NCBI GenBank assembly: GCA_014435945.1
Contig: GCA_014435945.1_4088.1
DNA length: 64,000 bases
Direction: 5' to 3' (one strand)
From: a phage
The translations under genes were made by a program, and so were the position numbers. This document shows positions 1-28,000 of this stretch, in pieces. The notes under the pieces are model-generated. The model did no database searches, was not told the origin of the DNA, and saw only the letters and a program-made list of their open reading frames with translations. Position 1 is the stretch's first letter, and each line of letters starts with the position of its first letter.

Positions 1-1002
1 AATGGTAACATTAGAACCAACACCCAATGAACCAGCATAACTACTCGCATTTAAACCTGTTGCATATACACCAGAACTCGTAACTAGTATACTAGATTGT
101 GCTGGGTATCCAGTATGAATTGAATACAAAGTACCGGGTGGTAAGGTTGTACTATTATTTCCTAATACTGCTCGTGCTGTACTAGACGTAGTGTTATTAC
201 CCCATGCCCCATTATTGGCGTTCCCACCCACTAGGAACTGACGTGCTCCTGTACTTGGATTCTCCACTAAAGCACTGACTGCACCAATTGTACATACAAC
301 ATATTGTAATGTTTTTGTATATGTTGTACTTGGCTGATATAAAGTATATTGATTGTATGGAGTCCATGTATCAGTAGTACTTATACCTGATGTACTACCA
401 CCAATATATAAATTATTTTGTGTATCATAAAACATTACACAGCTATTTGTTGACTGTATTCGTGCAATATCAACATTAGGCGTGACAGCTTTTACAAATG
501 ATCCATCTGTTATTTGTTGAGTACTACCAGTACCATCAGCGAATTGTCTAGCCCCACTCCAACCAGTACTCCATATTGTATTATTATCCATTAAGAAAGT
601 AAACCAAGTAGTACCTGCATACATCTGTTTAATTGAAGTACCTGAACTTTGTGTGTACAAATTTTCAATATATTGGTTATAACTTAAAAATGATGTAGTA
701 CTAGTTTCTAAACCAATATGACCACCATATCCACAATAAAAATAATTTAAGTCCTTATCTTGAACTAACAAAGTTCCTTGTGTCATCCAGCAATCTTTGA
801 CATTTTCTCTAATTAATGTCCACGACCTTACTGCATTATTATTTCCGCGACCGAACTTCCCATAACTATTATTTCCTCGTGCGTATAGTTGACCGTCAGT
901 ATAAAGTACAACCACATCAGTATCAGTTGGTATTATTTTCTTAATTAGAAGAGGTTCAGGTGTGATATTCCCATAATCAAACAATCTAACAAAAGGTAAC
1001 AT
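1..1002 (-). CDS. RCC1-like beta-propeller repeat protein, array member (C-terminal part outside window)
   Basis: ATG at 1000-1002 with conserved SD/TATAAT cassette upstream; N-term MLPFVRLFDYGN; GQLG-type repeats. Confidence 0.7.
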   Translation of the reverse strand, partial: MLPFVRLFDYGNITPEPLLIKKIIPTDTDVVVLYTDGQLYARGNNSYGKFGRGNNNAVRSWTLIRENVKDCWMTQGTLLVQDKDLNYFYCGYGGHIGLETSTTSFLSYNQYIENLYTQSSGTSIKQMYAGTTWFTFLMDNNTIWSTGWSGARQFADGTGSTQQITDGSFVKAVTPNVDIARIQSTNSCVMFYDTQNNLYIGGSTSGISTTDTWTPYNQYTLYQPSTTYTKTLQYVVCTIGAVSALVENPSTGARQFLVGGNANNGAWGNNTTSSTARAVLGNNSTTLPPGTLYSIHTGYPAQSSILVTSSGVYATGLNASSYAGSLGVGSNVTI

Positions 1003-1073
1003 ATTTTCCTCCTTTATTCATTATACTATATTTAACCAAAAAGAAAAGCCAGTGCTCAAGTACTGGAGTAATG
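1003..1073 (-). promoter_or_regulatory. Intergenic cassette: terminator-like hairpin (CCAGT..ACTGG) + TATAAT box + AGGAGG SD
   Basis: Same cassette repeated between array genes. Confidence 0.5.
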
Positions 1074-2216
1074 TCAATAAGTATCCCAAGGTAATGGTGT
1101 CTTCCTAAATCCATACCTGGTTGTGCTCGCACCATCACCAGCAATGTATCTACCTATACCACATTGGTATAACTCTGTACTACTACATATAGCACCACCT
1201 ATAGTACCACTACTCCACTGAATTATATTAGAATATGTTATTGGTAAATCACTACATTTAGTATATATCCCAACGGTAGCACCACCACTAATACCACCAA
1301 ACATACTTCGGTTAGCACCAGTGTAATATATACCATCTGGACTCATAAATGCAGAGGTGTAAGTTGTACTGCAATCCACTGGACTTCTTATTGTATTAAG
1401 ATCGCCTGGGTATGTCCTGACACCAAAGGTGTATACATTACCATCAGTTGTAATACCATTACCTAACTGTCCACTGTTTTGTCCACCACATGTAAGCAAC
1501 AATGCAGAACCAGAAACAATTGCAGTAGCATTATACGAAGTACCCATTGCAATAGAAGCACCAGACAATAGTTTTGGAGTAACAATAGCTGTTGTATTAC
1601 CCTGGCCTAATTCACCATTGATATTTCGTCCCCATGCGTATATAGAAGTCGTATCCAATCGACATAGTACTGAACCATAACTAAACGTATATCGCATGTC
1701 ATTTACAGCAGAAGGCAAATTAACCTTAGTTGCAACACTAATAACACCACCAGTAACACCACTGTTTGCGTACATGTTACGACCATATGCATATAAAGAA
1801 CCATCTGAAGTTTTAATATGCATCATACCATCTGTACAATATAATGCATCTATACTCTCCACCGCAACCGGACCCATACTGGTAGTTATATCGGTCCACC
1901 CAAGCGTGGTAGTACTAGAAATTAAGTTATTTCCGGCGTATAGTATTCTATTATTATTAGTAACTACAACTGTATATCTGGCAGTAACACCAATTAATCG
2001 AACATCAGTATATATCTTAGACCACGCACCTAATGAATTGGTGTTTGCATCCAAAAAGCCCAACTGCCCATCTGTATTGTATCCAATACCCCATACATCA
2101 CCTGCACTGTCCAATAACACTTCATGTGAAAATCCAATCTTAAAATCTTTTATTGTAGGAACTACCGGAACTGGTGCAATATTCCCGTACTTAACCATTC
2201 TTGCAAAAGGTAACAT
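1074..2216 (-). CDS. RCC1-like beta-propeller repeat protein, array member
   Basis: 380 aa ORF; N-term MLPFARMVKYGN; repeated G-x-N-x-x-GQLG motifs; SD AGGGAGG. Confidence 0.75.
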   Translation of the reverse strand: MLPFARMVKYGNIAPVPVVPTIKDFKIGFSHEVLLDSAGDVWGIGYNTDGQLGFLDANTNSLGAWSKIYTDVRLIGVTARYTVVVTNNNRILYAGNNLISSTTTLGWTDITTSMGPVAVESIDALYCTDGMMHIKTSDGSLYAYGRNMYANSGVTGGVISVATKVNLPSAVNDMRYTFSYGSVLCRLDTTSIYAWGRNINGELGQGNTTAIVTPKLLSGASIAMGTSYNATAIVSGSALLLTCGGQNSGQLGNGITTDGNVYTFGVRTYPGDLNTIRSPVDCSTTYTSAFMSPDGIYYTGANRSMFGGISGGATVGIYTKCSDLPITYSNIIQWSSGTIGGAICSSTELYQCGIGRYIAGDGASTTRYGFRKTPLPWDTY

Positions 2217-2269
2217 AATTCCCTCCTTTATTCATTATACTATATTTAATACAAATAAGAATGCCAGTA
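2217..2269 (-). promoter_or_regulatory. Intergenic cassette: TATAAT box + SD; 9-bp-stem hairpin (2261-2283) overlaps stop codon of upstream gene, followed by T-run
   Basis: ATGCCAGTA-cttga-TACTGGCAT then tcttatttgtatt on minus strand. Confidence 0.55.
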
Positions 2270-3466
2270 TCAAGTACTGGCATTAATTGTTGGGAGTGGG
2301 AATTCTTTCATGACAGATGAACTACTTGCTGAAATATTATCAGGAGATTTCCCCGCGTAGTATAATTTATTATTAATGTACATATACAACGTTGCATCGT
2401 TCCCTGCTACAAGGGATTCACTTTTCTTAAAGTTAACACCAGCAGGTAAAATTGCTTCAACAAATGATCCTGAATCGCGTGTGGTATTATTTGCTAACTG
2501 ACCATTGTTATTATAACCAGTACTATAAATTTTACCTGAACTATAATATACAAGACCACGTGTACTAGTGTTTTCTATTCGAATGAATTCACTATCATCT
2601 GGGACTGTAGTTGATAGTACTGCGTTTAACCTATAAGCAGTTGATACATTATTATTGCCCAGTTGTCCATAACCTTGAAAACCTAGTGCATACATAGGAC
2701 ATGATTCTGGTGATGTTGGTGTTCCTTTTGTTATAATACCAATATAATTCGCACTACAAAAAATATCTACTGCTTCTACAACAGGTGTACCCTTATATTG
2801 AACCCAAGGGAATACATACGATTGTTGTCTGCCATCTGCCAAAGTACCAGAAGATGTTGTTCCTGTACGCCACATTGTATCATCAAGTTTAATAATCCAG
2901 TTAGCTGATGTAATTGATGAACAGAATTTTTTAACATTATCTACTACAAATGTAAATCTATTATAATATGATGCCGTGTTTATACCAAACTTAGCACCAG
3001 TATTATCACCTAACACATATAAACTATTATCAGTTCCTAAAATCACAGCATAATTATAACCTACGTATATCTCTTTAATTCTTGAAATTCCAAATTGTGT
3101 AAAATAGCTTGTACATTCAGTGAATGTTGTTACATTATTGGTGGTATTATTACCCAGCCAAGTATCCAAACCACTATAAAAGAATCTATCATCATTAGTG
3201 CGTATTAGACAAAAAGCGTTCATAGTACTGCACCAAAAATCTTTAACATTGCTATATATTTTTGTCCATTCAGTTACTTGATTAGTATGACCTAAACCAA
3301 AAATTCCACCATTCTGAAGACCCATAGCCCATACTGAACCATTTACATCAAGTAGCATTGTACATGTATATGAATAACCACCCGATGGGGTGACTAATTT
3401 AGTAAAATTTGGTACATATGGAATGACTACATTCCCGTACTTAACCATTCTTGCAAAAGGTAACAT
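2270..3466 (-). CDS. RCC1-like beta-propeller repeat protein, array member
   Basis: 398 aa; N-term MLPFARMVKYGN; Gly/Asn/Thr-rich repeats. Confidence 0.75.
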   Translation of the reverse strand: MLPFARMVKYGNVVIPYVPNFTKLVTPSGGYSYTCTMLLDVNGSVWAMGLQNGGIFGLGHTNQVTEWTKIYSNVKDFWCSTMNAFCLIRTNDDRFFYSGLDTWLGNNTTNNVTTFTECTSYFTQFGISRIKEIYVGYNYAVILGTDNSLYVLGDNTGAKFGINTASYYNRFTFVVDNVKKFCSSITSANWIIKLDDTMWRTGTTSSGTLADGRQQSYVFPWVQYKGTPVVEAVDIFCSANYIGIITKGTPTSPESCPMYALGFQGYGQLGNNNVSTAYRLNAVLSTTVPDDSEFIRIENTSTRGLVYYSSGKIYSTGYNNNGQLANNTTRDSGSFVEAILPAGVNFKKSESLVAGNDATLYMYINNKLYYAGKSPDNISASSSSVMKEFPLPTINAST

Positions 3467-3537
3467 ATTTCCCTCCTTTATTCATTATACTATATTTAAT
3501 TCAAAAAGAAAAGCCAGTATCAAGTACTGGCATTATG
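3467..3537 (-). promoter_or_regulatory. Intergenic cassette: terminator hairpin + TATAAT + SD
   Basis: gccagtatcaagtactggc hairpin; conserved tatagtataatgaataaaggaggg. Confidence 0.5.
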
Positions 3538-4647
3538 TTATTTTGGTAAATCAATTTTAGTAAAGACTGCAACATCCTCGCTTGCCCCTGGGATGGCGTA
3601 ATAAGAACCAGTACTATATACATCTCCGTCTTTTGTTAATATTGATGTCAAACCATCACTAAAAAGAACATCCCTAATTGCACTAACTTCAACGGGTAAT
3701 TGTAAATTTGTAGCACTATATATAGCACCAGTTTGAGAATTGTTTAATCCCAAACCACGGTTCGCCCCAACACCCTTCTGATATGTACTAGTAATTACCA
3801 TTTGTGTCGCAGTATTTAAGGCAGGTGAATTCGTCATAAACAACGGAGAACTATTCGGCAAAGTACTTACAGGAACTGCACGGAATGTAGTTGTATCTGA
3901 ACTAAGAAAGTTTGGCGTTTGACCACATACGAAATATGATGTACCATTATAGTAATTAAATGCATTACCACCTATAGCTGCATCTATTACTCCAGTACTA
4001 CGTAATCCCCACGTGTTAATTTGTGTTCGGTTCCCCGTGCCATGCTGACCCCTGTCATTCCACCCAGAACTATATAACTTATTATCTAATGTAATATACA
4101 TACTGTCATTTGCATTCGTCATTACTTTACGCACATTAGTAGCACATTGAGTTAATGTGTAAATTGATGATGAACCAATACCTAAAGCACCACGATATCC
4201 ATTAGCCCCTGCACCATAGAGTACTGAACTAGTGCTAAGTACAAATATTAAACCATACGAACATACTATATCAGCAATTTCATTTACCGATAGTACACTC
4301 GTAAACCACGCAGTCCTATCAACTAATACAGTACTGTAAGAAGTCCCAGTAGAAGACGAAAACCAATAAGTCTCACCAGCAGTCCATATAGTATTGTCAC
4401 TCTTAATAACAACAACTGTACGATCACCAGCAAAAAAATTAGTAACTCCTGTACTCACTAATCTCCATGAAGATACAGTGTTGGTATTACCATTACCAGA
4501 TTCACCACCTTGATTTCTTCCTATGTAATATAAATCATGTGAATCAGTCAATAAGAATTGACCCTGTGTGGAAGCACCAACTTTAATTATATTTTTAGGA
4601 CCAGGTGCAACATTCCCATACTCCAACATCCTTACAAAAGGTAACAT
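3538..4647 (-). CDS. RCC1-like beta-propeller repeat protein, array member
   Basis: 369 aa; N-term MLPFVRMLEYGN; 10-nt gap to upstream gene, so co-transcribed. Confidence 0.75.
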   Translation of the reverse strand: MLPFVRMLEYGNVAPGPKNIIKVGASTQGQFLLTDSHDLYYIGRNQGGESGNGNTNTVSSWRLVSTGVTNFFAGDRTVVVIKSDNTIWTAGETYWFSSSTGTSYSTVLVDRTAWFTSVLSVNEIADIVCSYGLIFVLSTSSVLYGAGANGYRGALGIGSSSIYTLTQCATNVRKVMTNANDSMYITLDNKLYSSGWNDRGQHGTGNRTQINTWGLRSTGVIDAAIGGNAFNYYNGTSYFVCGQTPNFLSSDTTTFRAVPVSTLPNSSPLFMTNSPALNTATQMVITSTYQKGVGANRGLGLNNSQTGAIYSATNLQLPVEVSAIRDVLFSDGLTSILTKDGDVYSTGSYYAIPGASEDVAVFTKIDLPK

Positions 4648-4657
4648 ATTTCTCTCC

Positions 4658-5788
4658 TTAATTTAATAATGCCCCTGGCAAATCCACTTTGACGAATTGT
4701 GCATATGCTGAGGAATTTTGATCAAAGTTTGGTCCCAATCCATAAAATGAGCTAATGCCGTCTTCATTTGTGTATATGATATAAACGTTCTTTACATCAT
4801 TTCCGCATATAAATCGAATGTCTTTCGTTTGTGTTCCCGCTGGAACATTACGAAGGTTCACAACGCCATTACTTGCATTGTTATCAGCCGCCGCAATTGG
4901 TAATTGATTTTGACCATATTGACCACGCATATTTTTTGCATCTAAACCAAACACAGTATCTGATACCGCACCAACTTTCAAAAATGAACCAAAACTATTA
5001 TTGAATGACTTTGGAAATGTACCACTATAAACACTTCTCCCATCTGATAATACCGCTGAACTGAATTTCCCGCTATTCGATATGGCAAATTCATTGTAAG
5101 GAAGTGTACCCATTTTGGTATATACAGAATATGAATTAGTGGAAGTATTATCAATAATCTTATTACCATTATATCCAATACCATACTGGTATCCGTCTGC
5201 ATCTTGAACTATACACAAAGGACCACTTGGGGTTTGTGTCAACGAAACAACACGTTCAACTTGTATATCACCAAATGTATTTCTTCGCCATGTTCTATCT
5301 ATTATAGTACTAGTATTACCCAAAGATAATGCCACACTATATAATAGATTGTTTTCAGTAAAAATGGCAACATAATATGCGTGGTTAATAACTTGCTTCA
5401 TCCCAGCATCAATAACTTCCTGTGGAATATGATCAGTAACATCCAACCAATCAAGGTTAGATGATGCAATATCTGGAGTACTGAATTTGTCAAATCTAGT
5501 TGAGCCACAAACTAGCACTCTATCATCATTTGTCAAAGCCACTGTGCTAGTCTGCATATTAGAACTGAATGATTTAACATTACTAATGTTAGACTTGTAC
5601 CAACCCTTATCAGCAGCACCCACCGTGAATCCGGTTCCCATTGATCCACTTGTACTTGTACCATAAGCCCACATCTCACCACTATATGTTAGTGCCATAC
5701 AGTGGCTTCCATTTGCTTGGAAATCCTTTATACCAGTGGGAGCAACCACTGTATTCCCATAATCAAACATTCTAACAAAAGGTAACAT
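4658..5788 (-). CDS. RCC1-like beta-propeller repeat protein, array member
   Basis: Start moved to conserved ATG (MLPFVRMFDYGN) at 5788; track start 5803 adds 5 aa. Confidence 0.72.
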   Translation of the reverse strand: MLPFVRMFDYGNTVVAPTGIKDFQANGSHCMALTYSGEMWAYGTSTSGSMGTGFTVGAADKGWYKSNISNVKSFSSNMQTSTVALTNDDRVLVCGSTRFDKFSTPDIASSNLDWLDVTDHIPQEVIDAGMKQVINHAYYVAIFTENNLLYSVALSLGNTSTIIDRTWRRNTFGDIQVERVVSLTQTPSGPLCIVQDADGYQYGIGYNGNKIIDNTSTNSYSVYTKMGTLPYNEFAISNSGKFSSAVLSDGRSVYSGTFPKSFNNSFGSFLKVGAVSDTVFGLDAKNMRGQYGQNQLPIAAADNNASNGVVNLRNVPAGTQTKDIRFICGNDVKNVYIIYTNEDGISSFYGLGPNFDQNSSAYAQFVKVDLPGALLN

Positions 5789-5863
5789 AACTAAAATCTC
5801 CATATAATAATTATAATGTATTTACAAAAAAATACCAGTACGTATTTCAGTACTGGTATAATG
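5789..5863 (-). promoter_or_regulatory. Intergenic cassette with 8-bp-stem hairpin ACCAGTAC..GTACTGGT
   Basis: Hairpin about 5833-5856 plus AT-rich tataat-like tract. Confidence 0.45.
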
Positions 5864-7045
5864 TTATGGTAAAATAATAGCTTGTAACGAACTCATACCC
5901 AATGTTGGGACACTCGCCTGTGGTGCTGGTGAATTCAATTTTGGTGATGAAACCGCATATGACATTCCTGAACCCAAATCTGGATCAAAAACTACAGCAC
6001 AATAATTCCCACTATATATAAGTCCATTCTTGTATCCTTGTGCACTTTGAATGCATTTCGTGAACGTACCAATATCTGTAGTGGCATTTATTAAGTTCCT
6101 CCCACGATAACCGCAGGTGTATATGAAATTATCATCGCCTATGTACATACTAGAATCCCCAGAAGAACTACATAGATACGACATATAAGCACGCATGTTT
6201 TTAGGAGCAACTGACAATGTACCTGCATAGAATTTATTATTCGAACCCGTAATATCACCATCACCCAATGCACCAAAACTTCCCCAGCCAGTACCGTAAT
6301 ATCTCTTATCACTCAAAAATATAATACAGTTGTTATTACACATCTTGATTTGATATATCAATGAAGGATCAACCCCAGGGAATGATTCAGTGAATGTTAG
6401 AACAGCCGGATCAGTACTAGCATTACATTGATGATATGTATTAGTACCAGCGGACAAGATTGTTCCATTAGCTAACAGAATTCTCGCAGTACCAGTACCA
6501 GCAGTACAAGCAACTGCACTTCCTGCACTTCCGGTGTATATTTGTCTGAAAGTAAAGAAACCAACAGTTTTACTTCCCTGCCCACTCCAACCAGTATTAT
6601 CAACTCCACACGCCCATACTGAACCATCTTGCATGATCATCATTACACCAAAGCGTTCTATTGAAATATAAACAATCTTCGTTGTATCAACTGCACTAAA
6701 TCTAGAAGTTATATCAGTCCATACCTTAACACTTACCGCCGTCGCACTGGAAGTAGGATCTTCACCAGCTATCATTATCCTCCCATTGTTAGTAAGATAC
6801 ATTGTCTGACTATAACCAGTACTACAAAACTTAACACTATTAGTCTCTGGAACTTTTAACCACTCGTTGTAACGTGTTACGTTAGTGTTATTACCTAACT
6901 GATAATAGTTATTCATCCCAGATACATATAACACACCATCCTTTATTAAACTATAAGTCGCACTATAGTCACTACAGGTATAACGTGTACCCACAGGTCG
7001 CTCAACGACGTTCCCATAATCAAACATTCTAACAAAAGGTAACAT
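5864..7045 (-). CDS. RCC1-like beta-propeller repeat protein, array member
   Basis: 393 aa; N-term MLPFVRMFDYGN. Confidence 0.75.
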   Translation of the reverse strand: MLPFVRMFDYGNVVERPVGTRYTCSDYSATYSLIKDGVLYVSGMNNYYQLGNNTNVTRYNEWLKVPETNSVKFCSTGYSQTMYLTNNGRIMIAGEDPTSSATAVSVKVWTDITSRFSAVDTTKIVYISIERFGVMMIMQDGSVWACGVDNTGWSGQGSKTVGFFTFRQIYTGSAGSAVACTAGTGTARILLANGTILSAGTNTYHQCNASTDPAVLTFTESFPGVDPSLIYQIKMCNNNCIIFLSDKRYYGTGWGSFGALGDGDITGSNNKFYAGTLSVAPKNMRAYMSYLCSSSGDSSMYIGDDNFIYTCGYRGRNLINATTDIGTFTKCIQSAQGYKNGLIYSGNYCAVVFDPDLGSGMSYAVSSPKLNSPAPQASVPTLGMSSLQAIILP

Positions 7046-7118
7046 AATAAAATCTCCGTAATTAAATTATATAGTATTTACAAAAAATACCAGTACATAT
7101 TTCAGTACTGACCTATTA
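7046..7118 (-). promoter_or_regulatory. Intergenic cassette with hairpin
   Basis: ccagtacatatttcagtactg hairpin; AT-rich promoter-like tract. Confidence 0.45.
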
Positions 7119-8240
7119 TTAAAAGGGCAACGGTAACTCAGTAAAAGTACTTACGTCCGGTAAACCATACATTGAATTAGCATCACCACAGTAATACCAC
7201 TTCGTAGAATCATGTACCACCGATAAACGCTGTGCACATAACACTTCCTGTATGTCATTAAACACCATCGGGACTAACTCATATGTATCCGCAAATGAAG
7301 ATACACCACCACTCGCATGAAAAGTATTCGTCCCAGCATAAAATAACTGATTAGTGTTCTTACCCACAGCAAATGTCATCAATATCCCATCATTCGCCCA
7401 TAAAGAAGAAAACTTATCAACACTACCAGAAAGCTCTGTGTAAGTACTCGTAATGGCACTCGCAGCCGCCGCATTACCCATCTGTTTATTCAAGTTCTGT
7501 CCAGCAATAAAATATCTCGTGCGTGCACTAGAATCAGTATATAATAACCCAGTGTTCGTAGTCATCATTCCAATGTCCTTAATCGTCATACCAGTCTGTG
7601 AATAACTTAGATACGAAGTTAAATTAACATTATTACCCAACGAACCGTTATCACTCATACCACAACGATGTAATATACCACTTGTATCAACGTAGATTGT
7701 ACTAACTAAACTCGTATACAACTCTTGTACATTATTCGCAATAAACACAGCAGTCGCCTTATTACTAACCCCACCAAATGATAGGTTATTATCAAATCCC
7801 TTAGCGTATAATTGATTATTAGTAGTCAATAATCCAATCGTGAAATAAGACATTTTCATATCCCTTACTGTACTCAAATCTACTGCCCCAAATTGGTGCG
7901 TAACATCTGTCCATGTGAAAATCTGTGCACTACCAACACCACCCGTTTCAAACCATTTGTCACCACAGTACAATATGCGATTACCCTTAGTAAAGATAAC
8001 TGTTACCAATCCACTACCACACGCAAACTTTACATCACTTCTAACCTTCGTCCAATTAAGTACATAGGTAGTGGTGTTATTACCTATACCTAACTTGCCA
8101 TAACGGTTATAACCACGCACCCACAAATCACCACTCTTAGTAATTAATAGTAATGCGTCTCCTGTACTTATTATTCGAAATCCCGAACTAGGATCAGGTG
8201 TAATATTTCCATAATCAAACAATCTAACAAAAGGTAACAT
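7119..8240 (-). CDS. RCC1-like beta-propeller repeat protein, array member
   Basis: 373 aa; N-term MLPFVRLFDYGN; 9-nt gap to upstream gene. Confidence 0.75.
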   Translation of the reverse strand: MLPFVRLFDYGNITPDPSSGFRIISTGDALLLITKSGDLWVRGYNRYGKLGIGNNTTTYVLNWTKVRSDVKFACGSGLVTVIFTKGNRILYCGDKWFETGGVGSAQIFTWTDVTHQFGAVDLSTVRDMKMSYFTIGLLTTNNQLYAKGFDNNLSFGGVSNKATAVFIANNVQELYTSLVSTIYVDTSGILHRCGMSDNGSLGNNVNLTSYLSYSQTGMTIKDIGMMTTNTGLLYTDSSARTRYFIAGQNLNKQMGNAAAASAITSTYTELSGSVDKFSSLWANDGILMTFAVGKNTNQLFYAGTNTFHASGGVSSFADTYELVPMVFNDIQEVLCAQRLSVVHDSTKWYYCGDANSMYGLPDVSTFTELPLPF

Positions 8241-8249
8241 GATTTTCTC

Positions 8250-9443
8250 CTATGATTGCCATAACTGCGTTGGCATTAATGTTAATGTTTTAATTACGGA
8301 AGTACCATCCGGTAAGTTACCACCTGAACCGTTAAAGCCCCCACATGCATATAATTTATAATCTTTAGTTATAATTATTGTTCTGGACCAGTCTTTGGAT
8401 GCCATAAGAACATTGTCATATCCACCCTGTATCGCACTTAAAGAAAACGCCCCCCACGAAGTAATTACTGTTGTATTTCCCGTCCCTTCTTGACCATATG
8501 TATTGATGCCTGCACTCCTGACATATGATGGGTATTGAGCCATAGGTGCACCAATTGTTGAGTTACCCATATTACTAGGACACAGGAAACCATCACTAAT
8601 ATTCACTATAACCTGTGAATTCTGAACTGTAGTTAATTGGTTTGTAGTTGAAGTAGTACCATTCCCAGCTTGTCCAGAATTGTTTCTACCACTCCAGTAC
8701 ACCCTACCGGCAGTGAACCACCAGGTAACATCATAAGTAGCACTTATATAATCGACGTTGGATCGTATTAATTTATTAGTAAAAACGTATGAGCTAGTCC
8801 CACCACCACTTTCACCAAAGTTATCCTTACCACAAAACCATGCTTCTTTATTTGTTTTGAGATAGTGCGTACCCTGTAATGAACACGCCAATTGAGAAAC
8901 TTCACCCATACCAGTAACAACTGTTAGTACTGGAATGGAATTTTGGTTACCTGTTCCACATTCGGCATTTGCATTTTTACCACAAACAACTACTCTTCCA
9001 TCGTGTAGTAATATTCTAGTACTTTCACCTATATGTACACTCTTGATTAAATTAGCGTGTACATTTATTTTGTTAAATGCGGCAGTAACATCAGTCCATG
9101 TTCTAAAATAACCATTAACTGGAGTTGCATCTCCATAATCGGGGAATGCTACAGTATTCCCTGTGAAATATATTCTATTATCCAAGTCAATCATCAATGA
9201 GCCATGAACGCCTAACCAAAAGGCTGCACAGTGCGTTGCCAGTACTGTAAAAGTAGAAACTGTCGATTGATTCCCTAGACCTAATTGGCTCAAGTTATTA
9301 CCACCATAACCGTATAGTGTATTCGTGGGCTTATGTAGATACATAGCATTAGTATAATGTTGCTGTAAAACATCAGTGAACTCAACTGGATCAGGAATAG
9401 GCAGTTTATTCCCGTATTTAACCATTCTTGCAAAAGGTAACAT
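8250..9443 (-). CDS. RCC1-like beta-propeller repeat protein, array member
   Basis: 397 aa; N-term MLPFARMVKYGN. Confidence 0.75.
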   Translation of the reverse strand: MLPFARMVKYGNKLPIPDPVEFTDVLQQHYTNAMYLHKPTNTLYGYGGNNLSQLGLGNQSTVSTFTVLATHCAAFWLGVHGSLMIDLDNRIYFTGNTVAFPDYGDATPVNGYFRTWTDVTAAFNKINVHANLIKSVHIGESTRILLHDGRVVVCGKNANAECGTGNQNSIPVLTVVTGMGEVSQLACSLQGTHYLKTNKEAWFCGKDNFGESGGGTSSYVFTNKLIRSNVDYISATYDVTWWFTAGRVYWSGRNNSGQAGNGTTSTTNQLTTVQNSQVIVNISDGFLCPSNMGNSTIGAPMAQYPSYVRSAGINTYGQEGTGNTTVITSWGAFSLSAIQGGYDNVLMASKDWSRTIIITKDYKLYACGGFNGSGGNLPDGTSVIKTLTLMPTQLWQS

Positions 9444-9513
9444 ATTTCCCTCCTTTATTCATTATACTATATTTAATCAAAAATAAATGCCAGTACACAG
9501 TACTGGCATAATA
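9444..9513 (-). promoter_or_regulatory. Intergenic cassette: hairpin + TATAAT + SD
   Basis: gccagtacacagtactggc; tatagtataatgaataaaggaggg. Confidence 0.5.
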
Positions 9514-10692
9514 TTATCGGTTAAATTTAAAATCTGTTATGTGTGTCCATGTATGATTTAATGGTGTACTCATTGGTGTAAAGCCAGCAGGGTCTGACAA
9601 AGCTGTACCACGTGCGTACATAAATTGATTGCCAGTACAATCCATTATAGCATAAGAACGTTTTGCTGTGCCACATTTGAACCCAACTGCACTACTTGGG
9701 GTCGGTAATACTTCAAATGTAGGTGCATTTGAACTACCACCCCCATCTTTTGTTCCAGCTATGTACAGAACTCCATTAGTATCAATGATTAAGTTAGTCC
9801 AATATACTTGTTCTCGTCCAGCAAAAAAATATGTTAAATCACCTGGTACAAATGGTAACGTTCCTTTATATATTGTGGTATTAACATCCACTGGTGCACC
9901 AGCTACACCCCATGAACTCATATAGTTTCTCCCACTTGCGTAGAATGTAGTTCCTTTACCGTAAAGTATTAATGTTGCTAGACTTGTTCGCATTGCATTA
10001 TATTCAAACTCAGGATCATCAGTAGCGTCCTTAAAAATCTGTGTCCATGTTGTTATATTGCCAGTAGTTGTAACACCCATTTGATAATAATAATTATCAC
10101 CAGTAGCATAGAATTCTTTAGGGCCAGTTTGTACAATTGCATTCCTATTAGTTAACCAAAAATCTAATGTATTAGTCTTGATCTTGGTTGGTGTGTAATT
10201 CGCCACGGTATTTCCTTTTCCGAAATAACCATTAGCGTTATTTCCATGACCCCATAAATCACCATTAGTTGTGCGTAGGAATAATGTACCAATATTGAAT
10301 CCAACTTTTTCTATAGTACTTATGTCAATACCAACAGTCGTGTACTTCGTTGTAAAATCTTGAAAAGTACTCCAATAATTAGATGAACCATTAAACATGG
10401 TTTGTTTACCAGTGTACTTCACTTTATTATCTTTAGTGATAAGTAATGTCCCCCACACTGACGCGAACATCAACTTAACATTTTCCATAACAAAGTATGG
10501 CTTACCGTATGCTGACGCGGTAGAGTTCAAACCTAATAGTTGTCCATTATTACTACAACCCCATACTTCGCCGTTATCCAAAAGCATCAACATAGTAGGT
10601 TTGCCAGATGATACATCCAAAAAGAAATCTTTTGGTGTTGGTACACCAGGTGTAATATTTCCATAATCAAACATTCTAACAAAAGGTAACAT
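9514..10692 (-). CDS. RCC1-like beta-propeller repeat protein, array member
   Basis: 392 aa; N-term MLPFVRMFDYGN. Confidence 0.75.
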   Translation of the reverse strand: MLPFVRMFDYGNITPGVPTPKDFFLDVSSGKPTMLMLLDNGEVWGCSNNGQLLGLNSTASAYGKPYFVMENVKLMFASVWGTLLITKDNKVKYTGKQTMFNGSSNYWSTFQDFTTKYTTVGIDISTIEKVGFNIGTLFLRTTNGDLWGHGNNANGYFGKGNTVANYTPTKIKTNTLDFWLTNRNAIVQTGPKEFYATGDNYYYQMGVTTTGNITTWTQIFKDATDDPEFEYNAMRTSLATLILYGKGTTFYASGRNYMSSWGVAGAPVDVNTTIYKGTLPFVPGDLTYFFAGREQVYWTNLIIDTNGVLYIAGTKDGGGSSNAPTFEVLPTPSSAVGFKCGTAKRSYAIMDCTGNQFMYARGTALSDPAGFTPMSTPLNHTWTHITDFKFNR

Positions 10693-10764
10693 ATTTCCCT
10701 CCTTTATTCATTATACTATATTTAATCAAAAATAAAAGCCAGTACTCTGTACTGGCATATTAAT
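10693..10764 (-). promoter_or_regulatory. Intergenic cassette: hairpin + TATAAT + SD
   Basis: gccagtactctgtactggc; conserved cassette. Confidence 0.5.
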
Positions 10765-11913
10765 TCATTGTATAAATGACATATCTACTTCTGTATAATT
10801 AAGAACGTTCTGTCCAGAAATACCACCCATTACTACTATTGCAATGCCACAATAATATAATTTTCCAGTATCCGTAAGTATAAGTGAACCAGATGGACTG
10901 CGTACCAAATTACACGAAGTATTAAACGAAGTATATGAAGGAGTATAGGAGTACTGATTATTATTATTACCAACACCTAATTGCCCAAACCCATTCGATC
11001 CAGAAGCATATAGAACTTCATCTGCTTTGACAATATGTGATGCCATGTTACCAACACAAGTATATAGAGTATAAACTCCTGAACTCAATAATGTCGGAGT
11101 TTTATATTGTATATCTGTAGATGTAGAAGTACCACCTGTACCAAATTCGTTCCCATATTGTGCACCGAACTGTTTACCACAAGCGTACAAATTATTATCC
11201 GATTTGATAAAAAATGTACTCTGATAACTTACATTAAAATCTATAACATCCGAAGAAATCATCGTCACCCCAGTAATAGAAGTTTGATTACCCGTGCCCA
11301 ACTGGTAGTAATAGTTAAAACCACAACCCCATAAAGTATTATCTTCTCGCAAATAAATGTTACCAACTGCCTTTTTAACCGAAGTTATAGTATCTACTCT
11401 TTTGAATGTGTTAAAAGAATTAATGTTTGTGCCATCACCAAATGATGATATGTTCGATATATTGTTAGCTCCACAACAATACAATGTACCATCGTTTGTT
11501 ATCAAATTCACCTTCATATCATAAAAACTACTCATGTATTTTATATCAGAAACATTAATACCACTTGATGTTATCCACGTAGTACAGTCCGTCCACAAAG
11601 TTTTTCTATCAGTTACACCAGTGAATGCCTTCGTGTTACCAGTGATAAAAACTTTTCCAGTACCTTTCTCTTCATACAATTGACAATCACTACTGTTATC
11701 TTCCAATAGAACTCGTTTAACATTCTCCGCACAAAGAATAAATTTACTCGATGCTACACCTGTACCAGTACCCCAATTCGTCGCAGAAGATGCATACAAC
11801 TTATCAGTATAAGTATCATGAAGATACATAGAATCACTGGAATATATTTTAAAACGCCCTTCTTTCTCAGGTATAATATTCCCATAATCAAACATTCTAA
11901 CAAAAGGTAACAT
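10765..11913 (-). CDS. RCC1-like beta-propeller repeat protein, first array member
   Basis: Start moved to conserved ATG at 11913 (MLPFVRMFDYGN); SD AGGAGG. Confidence 0.72.
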   Translation of the reverse strand: MLPFVRMFDYGNIIPEKEGRFKIYSSDSMYLHDTYTDKLYASSATNWGTGTGVASSKFILCAENVKRVLLEDNSSDCQLYEEKGTGKVFITGNTKAFTGVTDRKTLWTDCTTWITSSGINVSDIKYMSSFYDMKVNLITNDGTLYCCGANNISNISSFGDGTNINSFNTFKRVDTITSVKKAVGNIYLREDNTLWGCGFNYYYQLGTGNQTSITGVTMISSDVIDFNVSYQSTFFIKSDNNLYACGKQFGAQYGNEFGTGGTSTSTDIQYKTPTLLSSGVYTLYTCVGNMASHIVKADEVLYASGSNGFGQLGVGNNNNQYSYTPSYTSFNTSCNLVRSPSGSLILTDTGKLYYCGIAIVVMGGISGQNVLNYTEVDMSFIQ

Positions 11914-11961
11914 ATTTCCTCCTTTATTCATTATATCATATTTACCCCATAAACAAAACCC

Positions 11962-18105: not shown

Positions 18106-18222
18106 AGATGGCTATCCATCTAGACGGCTAAACGGCTAGATTTCTAGATGGCTGTATGGCTAGACGTTTGGACGGCTAAACGGCTAGATGGTTACACGTC
18201 TGGATGTATAGACGGCTAAATC
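18106..18222. repeat. Iteron-like direct repeats (ACGGCTAAACGGCTAGA / GGCTAGA units) followed by AT-rich tract
   Basis: gacggctaaacggctagat occurs twice, plus related tagatggct/tagacg units; candidate origin or packaging site. Confidence 0.5.
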
Positions 18223-19005
18223 AAAATTTTTATTTTGTTTTTTCCAATAGTTCCCCTACCGCGTGGGGATAGTTTCCCCGCAGTATCTGGAGTTAGATTT
18301 TTCTGAATCTGGAATCATTATCCCCGTTTTAGCCTGGTATGTCAACCGCCTGGATGAATATTTTTAAAAAATAATCTAGTACTGAATTTTGGGCGTAACT
18401 ATGCACCCGGTGGGCTTGAGTCTTTCTCGACTTGATGGAACTATTATACAGTACTGGAAAAATAAAGCAATACCCTGGAAGCAAAAAAGTTTTAATTAAT
18501 TTGCTTGCTATCCTGGGCCGGACTATGGTACTATATTTCAGTACTGAGAAAGTGCGTTTACCTGCTAGGGTGCGGGAGTGTATCCTTTTTAAATTTACTG
18601 AATTTTGGGCGTAATTCCGCACCCCCAGGGGTATCCGCTTTCTCGCGTCTATGTAGTAATTATACGCTTTTTCGGTGCTGAGTCAATAGCTAAAAACAAA
18701 ATAATTGAAAATAATTTAACGCGTTTAAACGGCCCGTAAAGCCCTGGTTAGCTGGTGGCGGTGCAAATGTATAGCTTAGGTGTATTAATGCGTTAGAATG
18801 CGATTGAGGACGTTTTACGGGGTATAGTACTGATTCAGTACTGAAAGATTGTTCTCCCTGGATTGTTCCAGTACTCCTATATAGAAAGAAAACTATTTTA
18901 AAAGTATTTGTAGAAAGTACTTGCAAAGTATTGGGAAAGGTGTAGAATGTTTTACATCGAGACGGGGGATACGCTCCCGACTCACTTTTAAAAGAGATTA
19001 AAACG

Positions 19006-20369: not shown

Positions 20370-20654
20370 GCAGTTTACAAATCTTTACAATTGCCAGTAT
20401 TGACTTATTTTGTCAGTACTGGCATAATGTATTCATTGGCAGATAAGCCGTAGCCCATAGGGTGCGGAAGTGTATCTATAGAAAAAGTAGTTTAGTACAG
20501 TTACAATTGTGCACCCGGTGGGTTAGCTGTTGTCATGGGGTATATTATACCAGTACTGGATAGTGCTGTCAATACTTTTTTTACTATTCAGTACTGAAAA
20601 ACTATTTGATAAAAAGTACTTGCAAACTATGTTTAAAGGCGTATAATGTTTTAC

Positions 20655-20730
20655 ATCAGGACGGGGAACGAAATAAGTAACTTCCCGTTAAGTAGCCCAG
20701 GAGTAAGGCACACGAAAAACTCCCCTGATA
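20655..20730 (+). ncRNA. Conserved ~75-nt structured leader element, copy 1 of 3
   Basis: ggacggggaacg...aagtag...cgaaaaactcccctgat recurs at 24012-24090 and 31788-31870. Confidence 0.35.
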
Positions 20731-20797
20731 AAATAGTTTGACAATTGTTTTTAAAAGCGTATAATACTTACATAAACTACTGAATGAGGGTTACAAA

Positions 20798-21409
20798 ATG
20801 AAAACTATCACTACTACTACTTATGTTATGGATTTTTCTGAATTGAACGCAGAACAAAAAACGTCAGCTATCGAACTAGTTCGGGAACGTGAAAAAAACT
20901 CAAACGACGATTATTTTTCTGAAAGTGAAATTGAACACTATAAAGAAACAGTATTGCCGGAATATGGCATTAATGACGCTGAAATACAATTCAGTGGTTT
21001 TTGGTCCCAGGGTGACGGTGCATCAATCAGTACTGACCACGTTGACGCAGTGAAGTTTTTACGCAAGGTAAGAGCATTAACTAAGTATCGCTCAATCCGT
21101 CACCTGCTGAATGAAGATGATTTGGCGATGAGTGTAAAGCGTTCGCACTCCCACTACTCGCATGAGAATACTGTAAGCGGGTACATTGAATCGGCTTACA
21201 CTGATTTAACCGCAAAACAAGAAACGTTAGTTAATGAGCTTGAGGAACTACTCACTGACACTATTCGTGAATTATCCCGCAAGTTGTACCGTGATTTAGA
21301 GAATGCATATGAGGATCAATTCACTACTGAAAACATTACGGCACTGATTGAGGGTAACGAATATCAATTCAATGTTATTGATGGCGTAGTAGAATCAATC
21401 GAATATTAA
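20798..21409 (+). CDS. hypothetical protein (203 aa, acidic)
   Basis: ORF with own TATAAT promoter (20740-20790). Confidence 0.6.
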   Translation: MKTITTTTYVMDFSELNAEQKTSAIELVREREKNSNDDYFSESEIEHYKETVLPEYGINDAEIQFSGFWSQGDGASISTDHVDAVKFLRKVRALTKYRSIRHLLNEDDLAMSVKRSHSHYSHENTVSGYIESAYTDLTAKQETLVNELEELLTDTIRELSRKLYRDLENAYEDQFTTENITALIEGNEYQFNVIDGVVESIEY

Positions 21410-23903: not shown

Positions 23904-23930
23904 AGCCCACCTGGTGGGCTTTTTTGTTTT
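23904..23930 (+). terminator. Intrinsic terminator
   Basis: GCCCACC-tg-GTGGGC followed by TTTTTTGTTTTT. Confidence 0.65.
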
Positions 23931-24011
23931 TGTAGTATCGTAGTACTGAGATACTTTAAAAATAGTTTTAAAAAAGTAGTTGACATTACCACAAAAAGGC
24001 GTAGAATGTAT

Positions 24012-24090
24012 TACATCAAGACGGGGAGCACTAAGTAGACCGCCAGTAAGTCGAACGAAAAACTGGACACGTCGAGAAAACTTTGATACA
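24012..24090 (+). ncRNA. Conserved structured leader element, copy 2
   Basis: caagacggggagcactaagtag...cgaaaaact; between promoter and gene 24131. Confidence 0.35.
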
Positions 24091-24130
24091 CTAATAAACG
24101 TAAACTAAACTTTAATTGAGGATTTATAAA

Positions 24131-24613
24131 ATGGCTAATGTAAAATCATTCATCAAAGCACTGGTAGCAAATGAAACTAACGTCGCGGCAGAGATCCTGG
24201 CTGAACTGGATAACGATACCATGAAAGCGGTACGCAATAATTTTAACATCGCGTACAGTACTGCGAAAGAACTACAAGCAAATAAAGCGGCAGAAATTGA
24301 AGCGGCAAAGGCGGCCCGTGAAGCAGAACTACAAGCAACAATCGAAAGTATTCAGGCGGCAGTAGTTGGATTGGATCTGGAAGTAGTTACAGAGATGGCA
24401 CAAAAAGCCCTGGCGGTTAAGTATGGGGAAGACAAGCCAGAAGTAAAAGCCAAAAAATGGATTCAGGAACGCGTAGCGGTAGTACTGGACAACGGGGAAG
24501 AATATCTGATTCCGGTGCGTGGTAACTGCATTGCGGTAGTACTGGATGCGATTAACTCCAGTGGTATGACTCGCGAGGAATGGATCGAAGCTCATCGCAA
24601 AGTTGAAGCATAA
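24131..24613 (+). CDS. hypothetical protein (Ala/Glu-rich, predicted helical)
   Basis: Start moved to ATG 24131 (track start is TTG); SD GAGGA. Confidence 0.58.
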   Translation: MANVKSFIKALVANETNVAAEILAELDNDTMKAVRNNFNIAYSTAKELQANKAAEIEAAKAAREAELQATIESIQAAVVGLDLEVVTEMAQKALAVKYGEDKPEVKAKKWIQERVAVVLDNGEEYLIPVRGNCIAVVLDAINSSGMTREEWIEAHRKVEA

Positions 24614-24634: not shown

Positions 24635-24662
24635 AGCCCACCTTAAACGGTGGGCTTTTTTG
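24635..24662 (+). terminator. Intrinsic terminator
   Basis: AGCCCACC-ttaaac-GGTGGGCT followed by TTTTTTG. Confidence 0.65.
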
Positions 24663-27969: not shown

Positions 27970-28000
27970 AAAAAGTGGTTGACTCCGGTCAGCCATTTTG
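27970..28000 (+). terminator. Terminator-like hairpin (A-run, GTGGTTGAC..GTCAGCCAT, T-run) at start of repeat module
   Basis: Same module at 31633, 34899 and 37657. Confidence 0.45.

Follow-up and report, generated by a model that had tools for sequence, protein, structure and literature searches.

A conserved, probably pseudoknotted RNA motif in predicted early leaders of a jumbo coliphage and in the A1 leader of phage T7

Few phages have been studied as closely as T7, whose A1 promoter and leader serve as standard tools of transcription research. RNase III cuts the leader off the T7 0.3 mRNA at the site R0.3. Structured leaders are found in other phage transcripts as well. The put sites of the temperate lambdoid phage HK022 act without phage proteins; they consist of two stem-loops, with no pseudoknot, and suppress termination in cis through binding of the beta' subunit of RNA polymerase. 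In the leader of T4 gene 32 an H-type pseudoknot at the 5' end of the mRNA is tied to this one gene and its own protein, and lambda nut and rrn sites combine boxA with a boxB hairpin whose loop has 5 nt. Here we describe an element that invites comparison with all of these. It has a core of about 35 nt, occurs three times in the early region of a jumbo phage, and has a close counterpart between the promoters A1 and A2 of T7.

The window that we analysed is a single stretch of 64,000 nucleotides, the early region of an Asteriusvirus-type jumbo coliphage. Around the element it is 96-99% identical to the ~350-kb jumbo coliphages phAPEC6, G17, slurp01, SP27, PBECO4 and 121Q; Asteriusvirus is also the class of one relative bearing the same leader element. 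About 30 promoter cassettes lie on the plus strand between ~17.6 and 38.3 kb (17666-38288), with the promoter layout AAAAAGTACTTGCAA-N16-TATAATgtTTTACATC. An UP-like AAAAAGTAC stands before TTGCAA or TTGACA, a spacer of 16-17 nt and TATAAT. In most of them a small gene follows, preceded by a Shine-Dalgarno sequence and, at +1, by a short GC hairpin. In records with determined ends, the early region lies within a few kb of the end of the genome, in or beside the direct terminal repeat, and it is therefore expected to be transcribed by the host polymerase early in infection. The leader element is a rare variant, with its three copies, among these otherwise similar cassettes. Several cassettes begin with AUCGAGAGGGGGA, which is nearly the T7 A1 start AUCGAGAGGGA, and their upstream AAAAAGTAcTTG resembles AAAAAGAGTATTG of A1. 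This likeness of sequence suggests that whole promoter-leader modules are common to T7-like and jumbo phages.

The first-pass annotation had pointed to a structured leader element of ~75 nt in three copies, and all three are indeed there, on the plus strand, at 20655-20729, 24015-24087 and 31791-31863. The core pattern AGTAAGNCNNACGAAAAACT has three matches in the window at up to 3 mismatches, against 0.24 expected. A covariance-model search had also been called for. Our model of the 41-nt core (R1) gives the three copies, which sat in its training alignment, 48-53 bits (48.2, 50.6 and 52.6 for copies 1, 2 and 3), and the next best score in the 64 kb is 7 bits.

Copy 1 consists of a closing helix (20655-20660 with 20724-20729), a hairpin A (20661-20667 with 20682-20688), the sequence AAGUAG (20690-20695), a short helix S1 (20695-20697 with 20707-20709) and a stem B (20700-20703 with 20720-20723). 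Copy 3 has the same parts in the same order: closing helix 31791-31796 with 31858-31863, hairpin A 31797-31802 with 31817-31822, AAGUAG 31824-31829, S1 31829-31831 with 31841-31843 and stem B 31834-31837 with 31854-31857. Between these two copies there are 4 substitutions and a 2-nt indel. With copy 2 they have only the first ~13 nt and the ~40-nt core in common, and copy 2 lacks hairpin A. The closing helix of copy 2 (24015-24020 with 24082-24087) is extended by GACG at 24020-24023, which pairs with CGUC at 24070-24073; AAGUAG lies at 24033-24038, S1 is formed by 24038-24040 with 24050-24052, and stem B by 24043-24046 with 24063-24066.

A change in copy 3 (CTTCCCGTT against CCCCGTT) had been taken for a compensatory one. 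The pairing is kept, but the change is a 2-nt deletion and not a two-sided compensation: a 7-bp stem with one G-U pair becomes a 6-bp stem of Watson-Crick pairs only. A genuine two-sided change between copies 1 and 3 is found elsewhere, AAGUAG-C...UAAG-G in the former being AAGUAG-U...UAAG-A in the latter.

Every copy begins 8 nt past the -10 box of a sigma70-like promoter (P1), a spacing that matches the 7 nt between the -10 box and the A of AUCGAG in T7 A1; the +1 positions of the copies are predictions, placed by analogy with A1. P1 is TTGCAA-16-TATAAT for copy 1 (20620-20647, predicted +1 at A20655), TTGACA-16-TAGAAT for copy 2 (23980-24007, 11/12, with a terminator upstream at 23904-23920) and TTGCAT-16-TATAAT for copy 3 (31756-31783), all on the plus strand. 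A second promoter had been reported between the element and the gene for copies 1 and 3, and we can identify it in both cases as a 12/12 TTGACA-16-TATAAT on the same strand (P2), at 20738-20765, 14 nt past stem B, and at 31872-31899. For copy 2 we read by eye only a weak candidate, TTGATA-17-TAAACT at 24083-24111.

The three genes that follow on the plus strand all encode acidic proteins: 203 aa behind copy 1 (20798-21409, phrog_5162), 160 aa behind copy 2 (24131-24613, phrog_27871, followed by a terminator at 24635-24656) and 91 aa behind copy 3 (31932-32207, phrog_14947). Pfam, PHROGs, PADLOC and PDB sequence searches with these proteins returned unknown-function families only, phrog_5162 and phrog_14947 among them. 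Homologues of the copy-2 gene come after the same element in the phages Munch and Hallingskeid. In the podovirus records that we read, the early genes annotated shortly 3' of the motif include some with an anti-restriction role, namely T7-type protein 0.3, a DNA mimic Ocr and a SAM hydrolase; by analogy, the jumbo-phage genes behind the leader may be candidates for immediate-early counter-defence.

The window holds further repeated and promoter-like sequences, which we report as observations in their own right. A second repeat, (A/C)(G/A)CCCA(C/U)AGGGUGC-NN-AA-N-UGUAUC, has 9 matches against 1.1 expected, with sites at 18568, 20460, 28040, 29707, 31693, 34964 and 37718 on the plus strand and at 20500-20516 on the minus strand. 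It usually stands ~30-40 nt past a promoter of its own (TTGACT-17-TATTAT or CATAAT) and ~60-160 nt before the next cassette promoter, and where it is so placed, copies 1 and 3 included, the downstream gene has three tandem promoters. In phage Munch it lies on the opposite strand. This repeat may be another short leader or a small RNA. Upstream of copy 1 (20400-20572) there is a convergent promoter pair ~120 nt apart, TTGACT-17-CATAAT on the plus strand at 20400-20428 and a perfect TG-extended TTGACA-17-TATAAT on the minus strand at 20572-20544, which would yield overlapping complementary short RNAs. The terminator scan picked up 12-bp palindromic hairpins (AAAGGGATTGACTCCGGTCAGTCCCTTT) that contain the promoter -35 box, at 27972-27999, at 31630-31657 and near 34900 and 37650; they resemble promoter structures that are regulated or bidirectional. 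At 18108-18219, near the inferred left end of the genome, repeats with an 8-bp period (ACGGCTAA / ATGGCTAG / ATGGCTGT) follow one another and may form an array for protein binding. Finally, ten tandem paralogous units of ~1.2 kb occupy 955-11934 on the minus strand, with conserved gene starts and upstream regions.

The core of the element can be written (U)AAGUAG-N-C-N-[stem]-(A)UAAG-N'-C-NN-ACGAA-NNN-[stem'], and all three copies match AAGUAG-N-C ... G-(A)UAAG-N'-C-NN-ACGAA, a pattern derived jointly from T7-like and jumbo sequences. To gather instances we used a pattern that left the stem and two other positions free, which gave 30 distinct cores for alignment, and pairs were counted on a structure that we specified. 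Standard pairs fill 96.7% of the cells in these 30 cores, against 15-36% when the 3' partners are slid along the sequence. Stem B (columns 13-17 with 35-39) has 4-5 bp and closes a loop of 16-17 nt. Four of its five pairs change on both sides, as in GGAG/CUCC (copies 1 and 3), CCAG/CUGG (copy 2) and CCUG/CAGG (T7), and further in CUUG/CAAG and UCCUG/CAGGA. The second helix, S1, consists of 3 bp, G-N-C with G-N'-C (columns 9-11 with 22-24). Its middle pair joins the base after AAGUAG to the base after the loop UAAG and is AU in 22 cores, UA in 6 and CG in 2, with no exception; within the window it is C-G in copy 1, A-U in copy 2 and U-A in copy 3. Switches of this pair occur within Kayfunavirus, between LIMEzero and a metagenomic relative, among the three copies, and between copy 1 and its orthologue in 121Q, which has U-A where the window has C-G. 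The outer pairs of S1 are invariant, and a looser pattern that freed them gave no variants among the matches listed; they were fixed by the search patterns, which leaves S1 with a single covarying pair, one that has switched independently in several lineages. S1 was also recovered unaided by RNAalifold on eight full-length jumbo elements.

Since S1 interleaves with stem B, the covariation supports an H-type pseudoknot, with a first loop of 1-2 nt, a second loop (A)UAA and an A-rich third loop of 10 nt. Neither the covariance model nor ViennaRNA can score a pseudoknot as a whole, and none of the tools used weighs one energetically. G-U pairs are found in stem B ten times at pair 13-39 and twice at pair 16-36. 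On the other strand these would be A-C mismatches, and therefore the structure belongs to the strand of transcribed sense. About 20 positions outside the helices, unpaired or perhaps in tertiary contacts, are invariant. The surroundings of the core are structured too. In podoviruses hairpin A ends 1-3 nt before AAGUAG in every one of 25 distinct contexts, and its complementary stems come in at least 10 different sequences; a hairpin stands at the same place in copies 1 and 3, in Munch and in L116. The closing helix is present in 8/8 jumbo elements, where it runs from about +1 and pairs with the bases just past stem B. A lack of covariation once more copies were aligned would have spoken against the element; what the 30 cores hold instead is two-sided change in both helices, and together with the closing helix in all eight full-length jumbo copies this bears out the description as a structured leader. 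We are confident that the motif is a real, conserved, structured RNA, and in our opinion it probably acts at the RNA level.

A BLAST search with copy 2 returned jumbo relatives and T7-like Yersinia phages (91% over a 35-nt core), and also Salmonella phage Munch, Klebsiella phage fENko-Kae01 and Erwinia phage Hallingskeid. The phiA1122 segment in turn is matched by 588 phage records, with Teseptimavirus, Teetrevirus, Kayfunavirus, Elunavirus, Drulisvirus, Limelightvirus and Waewaevirus among the genera. The core stands after a host promoter in T7, phiA1122 and T3-like sequences as well as in those of Kayfunavirus, Drulisvirus, Limelightvirus, Waewaevirus, Elunavirus and Teetrevirus. In T7 (about nt 540-590) it reads ...ACCGGGGUCAACCGGAUAAGUAGACAGCCUGAUAAGUCGCACGAAAAACAGGUAUUGACA, where the A1 leader ends and the -35 box of A2 begins; this sequence is printed in Table 1 of PMC11863960. 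Between the podovirus loci and the jumbo phage the core is nearly invariant, while the flanks are not alignable. In the loci that we read the layout is a sigma70 promoter, a short leader and the core, followed in most by a second promoter, and the gap between element and next promoter is 2-42 nt. In LIMEzero-type phages our promoter scan found no second promoter, and a boxA lies 17-32 nt past the pseudoknot; this links the motif to the leader RNA. The core, hairpin and pseudoknot together, has its homologue in the final part of the T7 A1 leader, next to A2.

Some features of the T7-like leaders may be recorded here. An rrn-type boxA (CGCUCUUUAACAA, then UCUGG) is found in the early leaders of LIMEzero (L082, 608-700), of L099 (4111-4190) and of T7 (L077, ~815-830), and in LIMEzero the repeats GGUAAGUAG stand just 3' of the pseudoknot. 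In T7 (L077, ~600-625) and in the A3 region there are two-codon minigenes, AUG-AAG-UAA and AUG-CAG-UAA, within the A2 and A3 promoter spacers, which would be transcribed from A1.

We looked for the element among known RNAs and in hosts. Rfam 15 has no match in the whole window at gathering thresholds; at E<=5 it has none in the T7 leader, and in copy 1 a single match of chance level, Methylobacterium-1, at 14.6 bits against a threshold of 40. ARAGORN found no tRNA or tmRNA gene in the window. A first scan of viral contigs with the copy-derived pattern AGTAAGNCNNACGAAAAACT gave no matches. Among 185,579 species with one genome each, only a T7-like contaminant contig and chance matches without the stem were obtained, and 5,426 E. 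coli genomes and 72,556 plasmids contain no copy of the motif. An actinobacterial draft genome, Herbiconiux daphne, includes a T7-like A1-A2 leader on scaffold150 (L118, 1058 bp), and this contig is almost certainly phage contamination of the assembly. Mimicry of a type III antitoxin RNA was rejected, as no related tandem-repeat RNA was found in the same species, E. coli genome and plasmid sets. Matches to boxA (GCUCUUUAACAA) in the window are at chance level, with none on the plus strand of the early region. A nut or rrn-type antitermination site was discarded for this phage as well: boxA is absent beside the jumbo loci and present 3' in many podovirus loci. Mimicry of the rrn leader fails, since R1 has no match in the E. 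coli rrsH leader and the common part is the octamer ACGAAAAA only; GUCGCAAGACGAAAAA is presumably present in the rrn leader. A site for T7 gp5.7, which represses A1-A3, does not fit, for gp5.7 binds the -35 region and not the A1-leader segment, and a -10-like sigma70 pause element, an IHF or DnaA site and an alternative-sigma promoter fit poorly by eye. We did not find the motif described in the literature on its sequence, on T7 leader functions, in structured-RNA catalogues or in Asteriusvirus transcriptomes, in a search that covered older T7 papers thinly, so that an early mention is possible. In our opinion the pseudoknot is a candidate for a new RNA family within the structured early-leader RNAs of phages, with good covariation support.

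How does this locus compare with the systems named at the outset? The T7 A1-A2 leader is the nearest of them. It has the same core with its two helices, a hairpin directly upstream, a place ~20-55 nt past a strong host promoter and a second promoter just 3'. The differences are in number and setting: T7-like phages have one copy with a separate 5' hairpin, no closing helix and a 3' arm that adjoins the A2 -35 box, whereas the jumbo phage has three copies, each closed from +1, with P2 12-42 nt away. HK022 putL and putR are likewise structured early-leader RNAs of ~70 nt made by the host polymerase, but we know of no sequence similarity to them, the analogy is one of position only, and the terminator right after the copy-2 gene argues against a put-like role. 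With lambda nut and rrn boxA-boxB the motif shares an early-leader hairpin with an A-rich loop and, in LIMEzero-type phages, the boxA behind it; in contrast, the window has no boxA there and the loop of the motif is 16-17 nt long. The T4 gene 32 leader offers the same topology at the same end of the mRNA. Unlike it, our motif is found ahead of five or more unrelated genes and has to act at a time when no phage protein has yet been made. The ompA-type 5' stabiliser hairpins of the other ~30 cassettes take the same +1 position behind the same kind of promoter, but they are plain GC hairpins without conserved loops, while the motif has its invariant unpaired or tertiary positions. Finally, preQ1-I, SAM-II, guanidine-III and ToxI resemble it in size (~31-36 nt), in pseudoknot topology and in the A-rich third loop; yet the motif has no Rfam match, no expression platform, no tandem repeats and no bacterial copies.

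The explanation that we prefer, still tentatively, would be the following. The element would be the 5'-terminal domain of the RNA that host sigma70 RNA polymerase makes from the upstream promoter of a tandem pair. This domain would comprise the closing helix including +1, the optional hairpin A, a single-stranded UAAGUA and the compact H-type pseudoknot, and the pseudoknot RNA would be where a conserved component of enterobacterial cells docks. Since the domain is made before any phage protein and keeps ~20 constant positions outside its helices, the partner must be a host component or a ligand. The nascent pseudoknot might engage its own transcribing polymerase or the elongation factors of that polymerase, and P1 transcription would then be kept processive through the crowded promoter region and the untranslated leader, with less pausing, backtracking or loss to Rho or terminators, much as HK022 put and similar RNAs do in cis. 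Of the mechanisms considered, this action on the polymerase is in our opinion the likeliest, though taken by itself it is rather doubtful. The boxA close behind the pseudoknot in LIMEzero-type phages fits a co-transcriptional role (put-like, anti-pause, anti-Rho or antitermination). On the other hand, both copy 2 and its Munch orthologue have a strong terminator directly after a single gene, which speaks against processive antitermination; P2 transcripts (T7 A2, A3) express the same genes without the element, and the jumbo loci have no boxA, both of which speak against a role at the polymerase. Further, a generic hairpin would suffice against backtracking, while the invariant loop bases call for a specific partner.

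Several other explanations should be weighed against docking on the polymerase by a 5'-terminal RNA domain. A less probable one, which we nevertheless take seriously, is that the domain is released as a stable trans-acting RNA, a decoy, sponge or sRNA that titrates a host protein such as a nuclease, a chaperone or an immune sensor. Its release from the P1 transcript would be the work of RNase III in T7, at R0.3, and of RNase E in the jumbo phage, where the cut would fall in the AU-rich spacer. The burial of the 5' end in the closing helix of all jumbo copies would suit such an RNA, as would three copies each behind a strong promoter, an independent P2 that supplies the downstream gene's own mRNA, the lack of relation among the downstream genes, the confinement of the motif to virulent phages and the physical separation of the T7 leader from its mRNA. 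But a signal for the 3' end is lacking, and a discrete RNA could then arise only by processing; no partner is known; the searches of host genomes, plasmids and the rrn leader gave no host-encoded look-alike to mimic; and T7 has a single copy. The same burial of the 5' end, at the very place where ordinary cassettes have their simple 5' GC hairpins, could instead point to an elaborate version of those hairpins that stabilises the mRNA or modulates its translation in cis. We consider this improbable, given that stabilisation has no need of invariant unpaired bases and that P2 transcripts do without the element. Moreover, RNase III removes the leader in T7, which makes it unlikely that a function common with the jumbo phage is the stabilisation or translation of the downstream mRNA. 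The conservation of loop nucleotides, together with a topology and size like those of preQ1-I, SAM-II and guanidine-III, would be expected of a riboswitch-like aptamer, in which an H-type pseudoknot with an A-rich third loop binds a metabolite or ion that reports on the state of the host. To this we give a slim chance: no expression platform is found, neither a terminator nor sequestration of the Shine-Dalgarno sequence, the gene contexts are unrelated to metabolism, and even at E<=5 Rfam offers nothing apart from the chance-level match in copy 1.

It is slightly less probable still that the element works as DNA, as an UP element or protein-binding site for the downstream promoter. In T7, T3 and Drulisvirus-type phages the 3' arm does end 2 nt before the -35 box, and an A run at about -47 to -43 occupies the position of a proximal UP subsite. 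This reading is at odds with the 2-42 nt spread of distances to the next promoter and with the LIMEzero-type phages, where the scan found no second promoter; besides, a site in duplex DNA would not be expected to have G-U wobbles or to covary in Watson-Crick fashion at 5 pairs. The first-pass annotation had also considered an attenuator. A structured leader between two promoters might well be an intrinsic attenuator or terminator that makes a short transcript, but we found no terminator-like site (GC hairpin with a T run) within or just past any copy, and what follows stem B and the closing helix is AU-mixed sequence and not a U run, so that we regard this as very improbable. Least credible of all is that the element has no function of its own and is a mere paralogous remnant from the duplication of promoter cassettes. 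Duplicated cassettes abound in the region, but the core is conserved, with compensatory changes, across phage families whose flanks are dissimilar.

In T7, the 50 nt from A1 to A2 thus seem to contain a conserved pseudoknot for which Rfam has no entry. Jumbo myoviruses that are unrelated to T7 have the same motif with compensatory changes, and this suggests that both kinds of phage interact in the same way with the enterobacterial host within seconds of the start of infection. There is some possibility, perhaps a modest one, that we are dealing with a hitherto unrecognised class of small pseudoknot RNAs in the first host-made transcripts of virulent enterobacterial phages, T7 included, which would directly reprogram a host machine (RNA polymerase or its elongation factors, or an immune or RNA-decay factor) or sense a small ligand before any phage protein is present. 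The hypothesis could thereby reveal a new RNA-based step of takeover or anti-defence, and it would be relevant to the T7-like and jumbo phages that are engineered for therapy and synthetic biology.
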